The notes below the pieces were generated by a model. The model had not been told where the DNA came from. It was given only the letters and a program-made list of their open reading frames with translations, and searched no databases. Shown here one piece after another: positions 1 to 11,443 of a stretch of DNA of 12,227 nt. Origin of the DNA: a virus (lineage: Duplodnaviria > Heunggongvirae > Uroviricota > Caudoviricetes); IMG/VR virus record IMGVR_UViG_2695420809_000014, positions 1-12,227 of that record, one strand, 5' to 3'. Every line of letters starts with the position of its first letter. The first letter of the stretch is position 1. A program made the position numbers and the translations under genes.

Positions 1-558
1 TATCGCGTCCTCAACAATGAATTTTGTGATGCGGCGCCTGGTGCCTCCAGGTGACGTTAACCAGTAAACCATTAACGCCGGATTGTTAGTTGATGTCTGT
101 TACGCAAGTAAAAGACCGCTTGTTTTAACTGTTCCGCGTGCGCTGAGCCGCATTCACCGCATCACAAAATTCACTTTAAAAGGGGCGGGTATCACGGGAA
201 AAACAAAACGAATACCCGCCAAAAGGTAATCAACATGGGTTGTTGTAGCGGAGTTGTCACTCAGGCGTATGGTCAACCTGACAACCCGGTGTCCTCAACG
301 GGGAAGGAATAACCCCGCCATACTTACCGCCGCGCCATTTCGCGGAGTGCCACAACCGGAAGCGCACGGTCGACGAAAATTTAACGACAGGCTATCTATG
401 AACCAGCAACCTCGCCGTGCGCTTTCGCGTTATGCTCTGACTTTTCAGAGAAATATCCTTTCAGTAAACTGTCAGTGCCGGATGTTCACCCGTGTCCGGC
501 GCACGCACTCCACTTCACCCATGGAGAACTCCTTAATTACCAACCCTCAGGAGGGTGA

Positions 559-792
559 ATGTTAAAATCAACTCTTATTGCTAAATGCCTTTATCAAAAT
601 CGCATGGTAAGCAGCATTTCAATAGGCGAGTCTGCAGTTAAAAGTATTTTCGAAGAGTACTTTCCCGGGCATGATTTTAATAAATGGAATACCAAATTAC
701 CGCCAGCAGTTTCAACGCGTATTCTGAAAGCAACTGAAAGAGCAAGTACAATTCGCGTTAACTATTTCATTAAAGATTTGTGGGATCTTTGA
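559..792 (+). CDS. hypothetical protein, 77 aa
   Basis: ATG at 559 preceded by AGGAGG (549-554); third codon positions biased to A/T as expected for real coding sequence in a lower-GC segment; 3' end overlaps the convergent gene 770-1177 by 23 bp. No family recognised. Confidence 0.45.
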   Translation: MLKSTLIAKCLYQNRMVSSISIGESAVKSIFEEYFPGHDFNKWNTKLPPAVSTRILKATERASTIRVNYFIKDLWDL

Positions 793-1177
793 TATCCACA
801 GAGCCTAAAGTATGTGCATATGGATGTGCTATTGTGCGCCCTCGCAGATTTGCATCATTTTCTAAATTCACTGAACGAAACAGGGCATCAACAAGGCTCT
901 GTACAATGCAAAGGCAATCGAAGACTGTCGCCGTTTCTGTTTTGATTGATGAAAGAACATGGCCATTCACGCAAACAGAAATTACCCGTTTATTAACATC
1001 GCTTTCCTGCTTTTGATTATCAGAACCATATAGCCCAGAAAAAGCATTGCGCACATTACGAACCATATTATCGATGGTTTCTTTTTTGGTGTATGCCGGG
1101 TCAATTTTCACCAGACTATCACCGAGAGTCGTTGCAGCAATTGTCTGGATTTCTTTTGGTAAATCTTTAAATTCCAT
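770..1177 (-). CDS. hypothetical protein, 135 aa, distal gene of the leftward early operon
   Basis: ATG at 1177 with GAGG 6 nt upstream; separated by 22 bp from the stop of the upstream minus-strand gene (1200); about 41% GC versus about 50% for the surrounding phage backbone. No family recognised. Confidence 0.6.
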   Translation of the reverse strand: MEFKDLPKEIQTIAATTLGDSLVKIDPAYTKKETIDNMVRNVRNAFSGLYGSDNQKQESDVNKRVISVCVNGHVLSSIKTETATVFDCLCIVQSLVDALFRSVNLENDANLRGRTIAHPYAHTLGSVDIKDPTNL

Positions 1178-1199
1178 TATTAGCCTCGTTGGTTAGCTA

Positions 1200-1418
1200 T
1201 TAACGTGGGTATGTAATCATTCTGGCAATGCTTAATGCCGCTGCTTTTTCCAGATTGGTGATATCCTGCTCCAGAGCGGACAGATTTTCAGCCTGCTTAG
1301 CCCTGGCTTCATTGGCCCATTTCAGGTCCTGCGCAGCCTTAATTTTCTGGTGCATCCACTCATAAAGTTCATCATCGGTATAGTCTGGCGCGATGATGAC
1401 GGGTTCTCGTTTCTGCAT
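1200..1418 (-). CDS. hypothetical early-left protein, 72 aa, predicted helical/coiled-coil
   Basis: ATG at 1418 with GAGGA 6 nt upstream; packed in the same minus-strand operon as its neighbours. Confidence 0.6.
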   Translation of the reverse strand: MQKREPVIIAPDYTDDELYEWMHQKIKAAQDLKWANEARAKQAENLSALEQDITNLEKAAALSIARMITYPR

Positions 1419-1447
1419 ACTGATTCCTCGCGGTGCTGCTTCGCTTA

Positions 1448-1576
1448 TCAGCCGTTAGATTTTGCCGGGCTGGAAAGCGCCTGTTTAAATTCGCTGAAGC
1501 TGAGGGCTTCTTCGCCTTCGGCAAGGCCTTCGAAGTATTCTTCGTAAGCCTTTTCCATGATTGTGTCGAAATCCAT
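1448..1576 (-). CDS. small acidic protein, 42 aa (net charge about -7)
   Basis: ATG at 1576 preceded by AGGTGG with a 5-nt spacer; start lies 1 nt after the TGA of the upstream gene (translational coupling); not in the supplied ORF track because it is under 60 aa. Confidence 0.45.
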   Translation of the reverse strand: MDFDTIMEKAYEEYFEGLAEGEEALSFSEFKQALSSPAKSNG

Positions 1577-7066: not shown

Positions 7067-7277
7067 AAACGGTTTGCGGGGAAATCTTAGTTAAGTAGAA
7101 TGACTGCGGGTGCTTGAGGCTATCTGTCTCAGGCATGAACACCAAAAGGCAGATAGAGAAAAGCCCCAGTTAACATTACGCGTCCTGCACGACGCTTAAC
7201 ATTAATCTGAGGCCCAATCTATGTCTCACAAATGTAGGTTAGCCTCTTACGTGCCGAAAGGCAAGGAGAAGCAGGCT

Positions 7278-7433
7278 ATGAAGCAGCAAAAGGCGATGTT
7301 AATCGCCCTGATCGTCATCTGTTTAACCGTCATAGTGACGGCACTGGTAACGAGGAAAGACCTCTGCGAGGTACGAATCCGAACCGGCCAGACGGAGGTC
7401 GCTGTCTTCACAGCTTACGAACCTGAGGAGTAA
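7278..7433 (+). CDS. hokD: Hok/Gef-family type I toxin (51 aa)
   Basis: Translation MKQQKAMLIALIVICLTVIVTALVTRKDLCEVRIRTGQTEVAVFTAYEPEE matches my recollection of E. coli HokD/RelF; AAGGAG upstream; an in-frame ATG at 7221 would give a 70-aa extended form. Paralogue assignment is uncertain because no relBE is upstream. Confidence 0.85.
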   Translation: MKQQKAMLIALIVICLTVIVTALVTRKDLCEVRIRTGQTEVAVFTAYEPEE

Positions 7434-8942: not shown

Positions 8943-9299
8943 ATGCTCATAGATTTGGTTTTACCTTACCCGCCGACGGTGAACACTTACTGGCGACGCC
9001 GTGGCAGCACATATTTTATCTCGGAGGAGGGAAAGCGTTATCGCCGGGCTGTGGCGTTTATTGTTCGCCAGCAGCGGCTGAAATTAAGCCTGTCCGGAAG
9101 GCTGGCGATAAAGGTGATTGCAGAGCCACCGGATAAGCGTCGTCGCGACCTGGACAACATTCTGAAAGCACCGCTGGATGCGCTGACGCATGCGGGAGTG
9201 TTAATGGACGATGAGCAGTTTGATGAAATCAATATCGTTCGTGGTCAGCCAGTATCTGGTGGACGTCTGGGGGTGAAGATTTACCCCATAATGCATTAA
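8943..9299 (+). CDS. rusA: RusA-family Holliday junction resolvase
   Basis: Conserved PDKRRRDLDN, DALTHAG and GGRL segments; size 118 aa; GAGGTG before ATG 8943. Confidence 0.85.
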   Translation: MLIDLVLPYPPTVNTYWRRRGSTYFISEEGKRYRRAVAFIVRQQRLKLSLSGRLAIKVIAEPPDKRRRDLDNILKAPLDALTHAGVLMDDEQFDEINIVRGQPVSGGRLGVKIYPIMH

Positions 9300-9313: not shown

Positions 9314-10135
9314 ATGAAACTGGAAGATTTACCGAAATACTACTCCCCAAAATCCCCTGGCCTGACCGATGCATCGGCCTCAACGTCAAAAGATGCGCTG
9401 AGTATCACTGATGTGATGGCCGCGCAGGGCATGACACAGAATCGGGCTGAGATGGGTTTTTCTGCGTTCCTGGGGAAAATGGGCATCAGTATGAATGACA
9501 GGGCGCGGGCAACAGAATTACTGGCAGATTATGCACTCAGTCGGTGCGATCGTGTGGCGGCGTTGAGAAAACTTCCGGCAGAAATAAAACCGGTAGTGAT
9601 GCGCATTATGGCTTCGTACGCTTTTGAGGATTATGCCCGCAGCGCAGCGAGTAAAAAGCAGTGCCCTTGTTGCTATGGGGAAAAATTTATTGAAAGCATA
9701 GTTTTTACAAACAAGGTCCAGTATCCGGATGGTAAGCCGCCGGTATGGGCAAAGTGTACGAAAGGTGTGTATCCGTCTTACTGGGAAGAATGGAAAAAAG
9801 TCAGGGAGGTGGTAAAAGTTGCCTGTCCGGAGTGTGGCGGAAAGGGTGAGGTTTCCACCGCCTGTAAGGATTGCCGTGGGCGTGGTGTCGCCATTCATCG
9901 TGAAGAGTCGGTAAAACGTGGTATGCCTGTTATCAGAGACTGCCAGCGTTGTGGTGGTCGTGGCTATGAAAGACTACCATCAACGGAGGCATTTAATGCT
10001 ATATGCGAGGTGACAAACCAGATAACACGCGCGTCATGGGAAAAAACAGTTAAGAAATTTTATGATGCGCTGGTGACCCGGTTTGATATTGAAGAAGCAT
10101 GGGCTGAGCGGCAGTTAAAAAAGGTAACTAGGTAA
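9314..10135 (+). CDS. late-gene antiterminator Q-like protein with four CxxCxGxG zinc-finger repeats
   Basis: Sits immediately upstream of a pR'-like promoter and tR'-like terminator; CPCCYGEKF, CPECGGKGE, CKDCRGRGV, CQRCGGRGY motifs; resembles Qin-type Q homologues from memory. Confidence 0.6.
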   Translation: MKLEDLPKYYSPKSPGLTDASASTSKDALSITDVMAAQGMTQNRAEMGFSAFLGKMGISMNDRARATELLADYALSRCDRVAALRKLPAEIKPVVMRIMASYAFEDYARSAASKKQCPCCYGEKFIESIVFTNKVQYPDGKPPVWAKCTKGVYPSYWEEWKKVREVVKVACPECGGKGEVSTACKDCRGRGVAIHREESVKRGMPVIRDCQRCGGRGYERLPSTEAFNAICEVTNQITRASWEKTVKKFYDALVTRFDIEEAWAERQLKKVTR

Positions 10136-10140
10136 CAAGG

Positions 10141-10168
10141 TTGATTTTTCCGGAATCTGTGGTAAATT
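10141..10168 (+). promoter_or_regulatory. pR'-like late promoter
   Basis: TTGATT (10141-10146), 16-bp spacer, TG-extended TAAATT (10163-10168), 5 nt after the Q-like stop. Confidence 0.5.
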
Positions 10169-10278: not shown

Positions 10279-10354
10279 GGCCCTTTAGCTCAGTGGTGAG
10301 AGCGAGCGACTCATAATCGCCAGGTCGCTGGTTCAAATCCAGCAAGGGCCACCA
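10279..10354 (+). tRNA. tRNA with CAT anticodon, closest to the lysidine-type tRNA-Ile2 (ileZ/ileX-like); tRNA-Met not excluded
   Basis: 7-bp acceptor stem GGCCCTT/AAGGGCC, D-arm GCTCAGTGGTGAGAGC, anticodon loop CTCATAA, T-arm GGTTCAAATCC, encoded CCA. Confidence 0.8.
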
Positions 10355-10455: not shown

Positions 10456-10532
10456 GCGTTGTTAGCTCAGCCGGACAGAGCAATTGCCTTCTAAGCAATC
10501 GGTCACTGGTTCGAATCCAGTACAGCGCGCCA
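10456..10532 (+). tRNA. tRNA-Arg (TCT anticodon, argU/argN-like)
   Basis: Acceptor stem GCGTTGT/ACAGCGC, anticodon loop CTTCTAA, T-arm GGTTCGAATCC, encoded CCA; close to E. coli argU by eye. Confidence 0.85.
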
Positions 10533-11163: not shown

Positions 11164-11389
11164 CCGGGTATCAGTTAGCGGGAGAAATTTTTAAATACTT
11201 CACAATTCAGGCGGTTGACTGTTGTCTGGTTTGCGGGGAGTTTGTTAAAAGAAACTGGCATGGTGAATCCCCCTGTGCGGAGGGGCAATCAGCGAGTAGG
11301 TATATGGGATAATCGCGGATTCAGGTGCTGGTACTGAATTCACCGGGAGGCACCCGGCACCATGCAATGGCACATAGCGCCACTCTCCA

Positions 11390-11416
11390 GCCCCTCTCCG
11401 GAGGGGCTGTTTATAT
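11390..11416 (+). terminator. candidate intrinsic terminator
   Basis: GCCCCTC-TCCG-GAGGGGC stem-loop followed by a T-rich tract (TGTTTATATTGATTTT). Confidence 0.4.
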
Positions 11417-11443
11417 TGATTTTGTCAGATGTGAGTAAACTCC

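Follow-up and report, generated by a model that had tools for sequence, protein, structure and literature searches.

The window, by which we mean the whole 12,227-nucleotide stretch of DNA analysed here, begins directly beside the start of a gene. An E. coli chromosome was found to be 100% identical to a query covering window positions 1-600, and in its annotation dicB occupies L001 5812-6000(-) with window position 1 corresponding to L001 6001, which places the dicB ATG immediately left of window position 1 on the minus strand. Leftward past dicB this chromosome carries a DUF1482 gene, an exonuclease gene, xis, int and then potC; rightward, on the same strand as dicB, come a 135-aa gene, ydfC at 1200-1418(-), two small genes and a LexA-family repressor. 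Read in the direction of transcription, the operon therefore runs from the repressor through ydfA/B/C-like genes and a two-gene insert to the region 1-558 of the window and on to dicB. The arrangement is that of a Qin-type DicF-dicB spacer, having a ydfC-like gene upstream and dicB directly downstream on one strand, and the likeness extends to the sequence itself: in a minus-strand alignment of about 545 nt (alignment A1), mean column identity with the spacers of K-12 Qin, Tritos and mEp460 was 88%. On these grounds we identify positions 1-545, read on the minus strand, as the ortholog of the ydfC-dicF-dicB intergenic region in the Qin prophage carried by E. coli K-12, and the whole of 1-558 as a leftward-transcribed piece of a dicBF-type early operon, which in a lambdoid prophage encodes cell-division inhibitors. 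The window shares with the Qin operon (ydfABC-dicF-dicB-ydfD) the gene order, the 545-nt orthologous non-coding stretch, both of the long helices described below and an equal spacing, of about 175 nt, from the terminator of DicF to the dicB ATG. Unlike Qin, it carries a two-gene cassette that separates ydfC from the region of the DicF precursor, and P3, at the centre of the spacer domain, has been replaced.

In the identical genome, 1-558 contains no CDS annotated by RefSeq, in agreement with the sequence-only reading, which had taken this end of the window to be non-coding; the ORF listing contains a mechanical 103-aa ORF with a TTG start on the plus strand at 254-565. No sigma-70-like promoter was found in 1-558 when both strands were scanned. 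The minus-strand RNA of 1-560 folds much better than its shuffled controls (z=-5.7). Among the roles suggested earlier for this region, that of a regulatory or ncRNA region of the early-left operon was the correct one, as it is the dicF-dicB part of a dicBF-type operon. The features on which the following account relies are these:

8-12, minus strand: Shine-Dalgarno sequence of dicB, GAGGA, from the sequence and from the K-12 alignment, which shows ...GAGGACGCGATA-ATG
16-36, minus strand: 3' strand of helix P1, holding the inverted-repeat arm 18-34
27-164, minus strand: STnc100-core-like RNA domain with P1 core, P2, variable P3, P4 and P5 (CCUGG-AGGCA-CCAGG), from covariance model R1, covariation and the fold
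62-68, minus strand: 3' strand of the pseudoknot, the P4 loop UUUACUG (consensus UUAACUG), here with one U-U mismatch or bulge
124-131, minus strand: 5' strand of the pseudoknot (CAGUUAAA), directly after P2 and complementary to the P4 loop
155-175, minus strand: 5' strand of helix P1, holding the inverted-repeat arm 157-173
177-227, minus strand: divergent DicF-like sRNA, 5' end approximate, from alignment with K-12 dicF and the Tritos annotation
228-356, minus strand: structured body of the DicF precursor, matching the 190-nt species, nearly identical to K-12, from long runs of invariant columns in four aligned sequences and from the fold
357-427, minus strand: putative upstream RNase III helix with arms 415-427 and 357-369, long, irregular and extended in the predicted fold
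435-450, minus strand: small hairpin CUCUGA-AAAG-UCAGAG with a 4-nt loop, from the sequence; just 4 bp in K-12
472-522, minus strand: 16-codon ORF with TAAGGAG upstream; the start is ACG in 18 of 20 homologous copies
545-558, no strand: limit of the homology with K-12 and Tritos, from the alignment; the two-gene insertion (559-1199) lies to the right, flanked by the ydfC stop and the precursor region of DicF

The DicF-like sRNA was recognised from its position and its 3' architecture. DicF is annotated in phage Tritos at a site matching window ~175-227, and the 3' part of the window's version shows the GGCGG...CCGCC terminator hairpin and the U-tract of DicF directly before the spacer helix: the terminator hairpin runs from 220 to 184 (GGCGGGUAU/AUACCCGCC), with a 9-bp stem (184-192/212-220) enclosing a 19-nt loop, and the U-tract occupies 181-178. 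This hairpin, as well as that at 435-450 (CTCTGA/TCAGAG, 4-nt loop), had already been pointed out from the letters, and both are present as described; the minus-strand reading of the features, and with it the identity of the 184-220 hairpin as the DicF terminator, had been missed. The Rfam DicF model (RF00039, gathering score 48 bits) gave no match at E<=10 in window 1-900, whereas the K-12 control scored 76.7 bits, so that we ascribe the miss to the divergence of the DicF moiety in the window. Compared with K-12 DicF, the window's sRNA has no 5' UUUCUGGUGAC segment and differs in both loop and stem. At least ten versions of the DicF loop occur among the loci that we fetched, and the version in the window is present in 149-187 of 5,426 complete E. 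coli genomes, where it is unannotated among the matches listed. With regard to targets, duplex energies calculated from full-length RNAs were uninformative and loop-only energies were used instead. The calculated duplex energy of the window's sRNA loop with the ftsZ ribosome-binding site was -11.7 kcal/mol, which is not better than shuffles (shuffle fraction 0.54), while the K-12 loop gave -12.9 with a shuffle fraction of 0.076. Since its ftsZ pairing is no better than that of shuffled sequences, the targets of the DicF-like sRNA in the window may differ.

In the K-12 dicBF operon DicF undergoes processing by RNase III as well as RNase E, and a 190-nt DicF precursor was reported by Ragunathan et al. 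to be RNase III-dependent (PMC10448788). When 190 nt were counted back from the 3' end of K-12 DicF, the corresponding window position was 362-363, which falls in the 3' strand of the helix at 357-427, upstream of the structured body of the precursor.

On the other side of DicF, between its terminator and dicB, lies the inverted repeat that had drawn attention to this end of the window. As had been claimed, it is perfect over 17 bp: the arms 18-34 and 157-173 are 17 nt long, 100% complementary and separated by 122 nt, and when 1-558 was shuffled 200 times with its dinucleotides preserved, the longest perfect repeat of this kind measured 7-13 nt. When G-U pairs are allowed, the helix of the minus-strand RNA reaches 21 bp, pairing 175-155 with 36-16, and the Shine-Dalgarno sequence of dicB (12-8) comes next after the repeat unit (175-16). 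These G-U pairs are possible only in the minus-sense strand, which argues that selection acts on the RNA. In copies of the unit that, like that of the window, lie in mRNA leaders, the helix (P1) measures 18-23 bp and occurs in at least seven sequence versions that differ by compensatory changes and sometimes contain a one-base bulge; these versions come from E. coli, Citrobacter, Lelliottia, Klebsiella, Buttiauxella, Pseudescherichia and viral contigs. In free-standing copies of the STnc100 sRNA, P1 is 7-10 bp long. We conclude from the sequence comparison that the reported inverted repeat is the closing helix P1 of an STnc100-type domain, lengthened from the 7-10 bp of the free-standing sRNAs to 21 bp.

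The kinship with STnc100 was established with covariance models. The Rfam STnc100 model (RF02076) gave only a sub-threshold match to the spacer, at 23-171(-), with 29.9 bits against a gathering score of 47 bits (E=1.7e-4) and covering only model positions 21-154, so that the spacer domain does not score as a full member of the family; the K-12 spacer scored 34.4 bits with the same model. A full STnc100 copy is present in the same window at 11229-11418(+), with 132 bits. For STnc100 as the PR' leader transcript of Q, a role that we considered, this copy is an unlikely candidate, as more than 1 kb, holding two tRNAs and a 117-aa ORF, separates it from Q (9314-10135) upstream.

Further copies were collected by scanning viral contigs for a shared 3' hairpin motif, which yielded 120 loci, and by a second pattern scan of genomes, which added copies of other enterobacterial genera; as most hits of the genome scan were chance matches in GC-rich genomes, the enterobacterial ones alone were used. 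The copies fall into two classes. Class A consists of free-standing STnc100 sRNA genes, often in tandem arrays, in which a promoter-like site is followed by a P1 of 7-10 bp near +1, the core, a variable tail of 20-40 nt and a terminator. Class B consists of leader copies like that of the window, in which tail and terminator are missing and a Shine-Dalgarno sequence and a start codon come next. We built a covariance model, R1, from 37 class A cores, including no leader copy, and this model matched window 27-164(-) over its full length with 57.3 bits (E=1.5e-12). It scored 58.6 bits with the K-12 spacer and 40-70 bits with 29 other leader copies, every class B locus tested being matched, and it gave no match in lambda or HK022. 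The window domain thus has the P1, P2, P4 and P5 of the STnc100 core fold, and its calculated folding energy of -48.8 kcal/mol is well below that of shuffled sequences (z=-3.98).

Analysis of RNA structure and covariance, which had been proposed as a check on the inverted repeat, bore the fold out. In a model-based alignment of 78 copies, standard pairs filled 94.8% of the cells, against 71.3% in shuffles; the covariation score was 0.569, compared with 0.158 in shuffles (0/500) and 0.05-0.18 when the partners were slid; and 19 of the 24 pairs showed changes on both sides. The invariant nucleotides of both classes are GAAU, the P2 loop CUNNGC, UCA and the P5 loop AGGCA. The spacer therefore shares with STnc100 (RF02076)/PasD the helix P1, GAAU, P2, a pseudoknot, P4, UCA and a P5 with the AGGCA loop. 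It is unlike them in having no promoter, variable tail or terminator of its own, as would mark a free-standing gene, and in being embedded in an mRNA just before a Shine-Dalgarno sequence and ATG, with the DicF terminator upstream. The P2 stem also differs, being GCGGC.../...GCACGC in the spacer and CCCCC.../...GGGG in STnc100, and so does P1 with its 21 bp. We conclude that the spacer is a divergent, pseudoknotted STnc100-type domain that escapes Rfam annotation, and this assignment seems to be new.

The pseudoknot is formed by the segment that follows P2 and the loop of P4. Across the copies, this pairing is present in more than 12 distinct complementary versions, among them CAGUUAA/UUAACUG, ACAGUCA/UGACUGU, AAACUGAC/GUCAGUUU, AAGGUUG/CAACCUU, CCAGUC/GACUGG and CUAGAC/GUCUAG. 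Because MAFFT alignments were out of register in the variable P3/P4 region, the pairing was tested by permutation, and the Watson-Crick runs between cognate strands had a mean of 5.30, compared with 3.17 +/- 0.13 for permuted partners (0/5000). The window copy can form the pseudoknot as well, its CAGU(U)AAA being complementary to UUUACUG except for one bulge or mismatch. Such covariation indicates a pseudoknot, which is absent from the structure line of the Rfam STnc100 alignment that we consulted and appears to be a new, if modest, finding.

What the lengthened helix may do is suggested by the processing of DicF. In K-12 a 72-nt DicF species has, according to two articles that both cite Faubladier et al. 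1990 (PMC5069750, PMC9438474), a 3' end generated by RNase III. Adding 19 nt to the 53-nt K-12 dicF annotation leads to L004 ~2054, which corresponds to window ~164, in the middle of the 5' arm of P1. The end was placed by arithmetic from these secondary sources and is uncertain by a few nucleotides, an error that would keep it inside the helix, given the helix span of 21 nt. With the 72-nt end mapping to the middle of the 5' arm on this reckoning, the most fitting reading of the inverted repeat is that of the downstream RNase III site in the DicF pathway, and the RNase III ends of the 72-nt and 190-nt species, as described for K-12, would both map into helices that are conserved in the window. 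The main text of two RNase III transcriptome studies names no dicB-specific sites. In most leader copies a Shine-Dalgarno sequence and a start codon lie within ~15-35 nt past the helix, even though the encoded proteins are unrelated. Taking these observations together, we propose, with a probability of roughly three in four, that the long helix is an RNase III site that separates DicF from dicB and at the same time closes an STnc100-type leader domain.

RNase III usually cleaves the two strands of a helix with a 2-nt stagger. In the model that we propose, transcription that reads through the DicF terminator would give dicB a leader of ~160 nt containing an STnc100-type multi-helix junction. 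Cleavage of the 5' strand of P1 would then produce the alternative 72-nt 3' end of DicF, which is known in K-12 and is predicted here by homology, and by the stagger rule the 3' strand would be cut between positions 26 and 25. The dicB mRNA would be left with a leader of ~25 nt starting ~13 nt upstream of the Shine-Dalgarno sequence, and a domain of ~138 nt would be released, the remaining P1 of which, with 9-10 bp, would be like that of the free-standing STnc100 copies. Such processing would uncouple the sRNA from the toxic dicB message and would set the 5' end of the dicB mRNA, and hence its stability and translation. DicF and DicB, both encoded by prophages, are classic inhibitors of cell division in the host, and tight limits on their expression are needed. 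For K-12, both the locus and its processing by RNase III have been described before; new, it appears, is the reading of the lengthened P1 as the RNase III site, which would anchor the long-known 72-nt species of DicF in a defined structure, and, as a modest addition, the predicted excision of a ~138-nt RNA.

In its placement the helix may be compared with the RNase III sites of the lambda N leader and of the T7 early intercistronic regions, where likewise a long helix of about two turns stands a short way upstream of an early-operon ribosome-binding site and RNase III cleavage defines mRNA ends. The comparison would be one of function only, as there is no homology of sequence or structure with the lambda N leader (R1 finds nothing in lambda), and as the helix in the window closes a conserved pseudoknotted domain whereas the lambda and T7 sites are irregular hairpins.

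RNase III processing accounts for the extension of the helix but not for the conservation of the interior fold and the pseudoknot, and it gives no reason for the existence of free-standing copies with a short P1. We considered that the conserved domain itself may be the product, a stable RNA of ~138 nt that is excised by RNase III and has a specific partner, the control of dicB being secondary; we regard this as possible, though clearly the less probable course. As may be the case for free-standing STnc100/PasD, the partner might be a protein, RNA polymerase, the ribosome or a small molecule. It speaks for such a product that the junction and loop nucleotides are invariant in both classes, that the fold contains a covarying pseudoknot, and that the predicted cut leaves a P1 equal in length to that of free-standing copies, which themselves stand in tandem arrays with their own promoters and terminators. 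The genes that follow the domain are likewise unrelated to one another, so that it is not tied to DicB. The ORFs after class B modules encode DicB, several proteins of 60-95 aa, small membrane proteins and a 282-aa protein; given the lack of relation among these, the domain is a generic leader and not a device specific for DicB. The excision, however, is a prediction, leader copies lack two parts of the sRNA form, its variable tail and its terminator, and the literature reports no partner or function for STnc100. Our tentative suggestion is that the dicF-dicB spacer could encode an autonomous RNA of the STnc100/PasD class, excised by RNase III, whose pseudoknotted junction binds a specific partner. 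If this were true, STnc100-type folds would be a modular functional RNA domain employed by phages in two ways, as the 5' body of sRNAs and as excisable leaders before small, often toxic early genes. The identification of the spacer helix also predicts a new processed RNA, and the domain provides STnc100/PasD, which are abundant prophage sRNAs, with a genetically tractable relative in E. coli K-12.

The proposal that P1 is an RNase III site also has to be weighed against a simpler function of the helix. Base-paired 5' structures commonly protect mRNAs, and P1 ends a few nucleotides before the Shine-Dalgarno sequence of dicB, so it could be a passive structural stabiliser or a translational barrier that undergoes no RNase III cleavage here. 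We consider this unlikely, given that selection keeps the helix at about two turns and not at an arbitrary length, and that the K-12 ortholog, as far as the secondary sources describe it, has an RNase III-dependent end in this very stretch.

Less probable still is that the domain is a cis-acting co-transcriptional element, either a processive antiterminator resembling put or an anti-pausing RNA. A polymerase that had read through the DicF terminator would then continue along the long early-left operon, whose annotation in the identical genome shows no evident N-like gene; free-standing copies begin near +1 of strong promoter-like sites and have a terminator after them, an arrangement shared with putL (PMC9378689), and in other genera the module lies near the early-left promoter region. 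The put RNA of HK022 is, like the window domain, a cis-encoded structured RNA of an early operon, but it is a two-stem fold of ~70 nt, which the window domain is not, and we found no similarity to putL or putR: the motif is absent from HK022, and R1 finds nothing there or in lambda. Moreover, in the operon studied here the DicF terminator precedes the domain, and free-standing copies accumulate, according to the PasD/STnc100 literature, as terminated sRNAs.

The distribution of the unit bears on the remaining suggestions, which concern the DNA and not an RNA. Of 5,426 complete E. coli genomes, 4,553 (about 84%) carried the inverted-repeat unit, at 10,146 places in all, with a median of 2 and a maximum of 9 per genome, and it was unannotated among the matches listed. 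The upstream flank was found at 8,968 places in 4,316 genomes, about as many as the unit itself, and at every locus examined the position of the unit within the prophage was the same, with a small ORF next downstream of it. A search for further copies had been suggested as a means of recognising a MITE-like element; it gave no sign of dispersal independent of the flanks. Hence, although the perfect 17-bp repeat and its several copies per genome might suggest mobile DNA of the MITE type, a gene that has decayed, or a cruciform or recombination site at the DNA level, we give these almost no weight, since the 1-9 copies per genome match those of the flanks and are syntenic in the loci examined, the arms covary, using G-U pairs, in place of being conserved, the interior matches an RNA family model and has a conserved RNA fold, and 1-558 of the identical genome has no CDS and no conserved 16-aa ORF. 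A decayed gene, in particular, is at odds with a conserved, structured, orthologous non-coding stretch present in ~80% or more of complete E. coli genomes. The sequence-only reading was thus sound in what it observed and, of its interpretations, right about a regulatory or ncRNA role and mistaken about the MITE and the decayed gene.

The 16-aa ORF that it had described at 522-472 on the minus strand does read MGEVECVRRTRVNIRH and is preceded by TAAGGAG with a 6-nt spacer. As a gene it did not hold up, for an ATG start is found only in the window and in an identical twin locus, and the 18 of 20 copies that have ACG include K-12 and Tritos. One of these 18 copies also has an internal stop, and the ORF is best regarded, from this comparison, as a lineage-specific accident and not a conserved gene.

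Besides the STnc100-like domain in the dicB leader (27-164, minus strand), the window carries a full copy of the STnc100 small RNA gene on the plus strand, with the Q antiterminator gene over 1 kb upstream of it and two tRNA genes and a 117-aa ORF in between:

9314-10135, Q antiterminator gene (PF03589)
10279-10354, plus strand, tRNA-Met (CAT) gene, downstream of Q
10456-10532, plus strand, tRNA-Arg (TCT) gene, downstream of Q
11229-11418, plus strand, full STnc100 sRNA copy (Rfam match, 132 bits)

This copy is preceded by a promoter-like TTGACT and possesses a terminator, and we conclude that it and the dicB-leader domain are paralogs residing in one prophage. The placement of the tRNA-Met and tRNA-Arg genes downstream of Q is shared with Stx-type phages. 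On other viral contigs we found STnc100 genes in tandem arrays of three to five:

L026, 342-1038, tandem STnc100 array
L098, 4349-5513, tandem STnc100 array
L013, 2265-3380, tandem STnc100 array
L045, tandem STnc100 array

All four arrays adjoin tRNA genes and isrI-like RNAs, and within them every gene carries a separate terminator and the tail sequence differs from gene to gene; the period is about 253 nt in L026 and L045.

In an E. coli locus (L132) a short-helix module (1444-1569, minus strand) is followed directly by a DicF-like hairpin and terminator (about 1300-1444, minus strand), whereas in the dicBF operon the two stand in reverse order. The L132 arrangement suggests that DicF-like sRNAs and the STnc100 tail-plus-terminator are interchangeable parts. 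The DicF loop itself is hypervariable, with at least 10 versions among the compared loci between conserved GGCGG...CCGCC stems, implying that target specificities have diversified among prophages.

Within the leader domain of the window, the P4 loop carries a substitution (AATGG, as against AATTG in K-12) that has created an ATG at 70-72 on the minus strand, in the dicB frame and 24 codons upstream of the dicB start, whereas in K-12 the open in-frame extension upstream of dicB begins with GTG. The ATG recalls a 1988 report which, by its title, is said to describe an in-phase internal start used for DicB translation. In genera other than E. coli, a recurrent hairpin motif, CCACCGAGCCUGAAGUGGUG-AAAAGACAGGC, lies 20-60 nt upstream of leader-type modules (L092, L150, L183, L227, L231 and other loci) and, in L183, near the start of a divergent gene; it may represent a nut/boxB-like site. 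A search of the window did not find this motif.

Relative to K-12 and to phage Tritos, positions 559-1199 form a two-gene insertion, flanked by the ydfC stop on one side and the DicF precursor region on the other. The cassette and two further features of the window are as follows:

within 559-1199, plus strand, 77-aa ORF (phrog_10348), antisense to the operon
within 559-1199, minus strand, 135-aa ORF (phrog_1363)
1920-1956, perfect 16-bp palindrome TACCCATGGGTATTTA(N5)TAAATACCCATGGGTA, followed on the minus strand by a T-run
7108-7283, plus strand, sok antitoxin RNA (Rfam match, 120 bits)

The palindrome, positioned directly after the repressor gene, looks like a terminator or an operator. The sok match implies a hok/sok-type toxin-antitoxin locus, and a 70-aa ORF (7221-7433) overlaps it.
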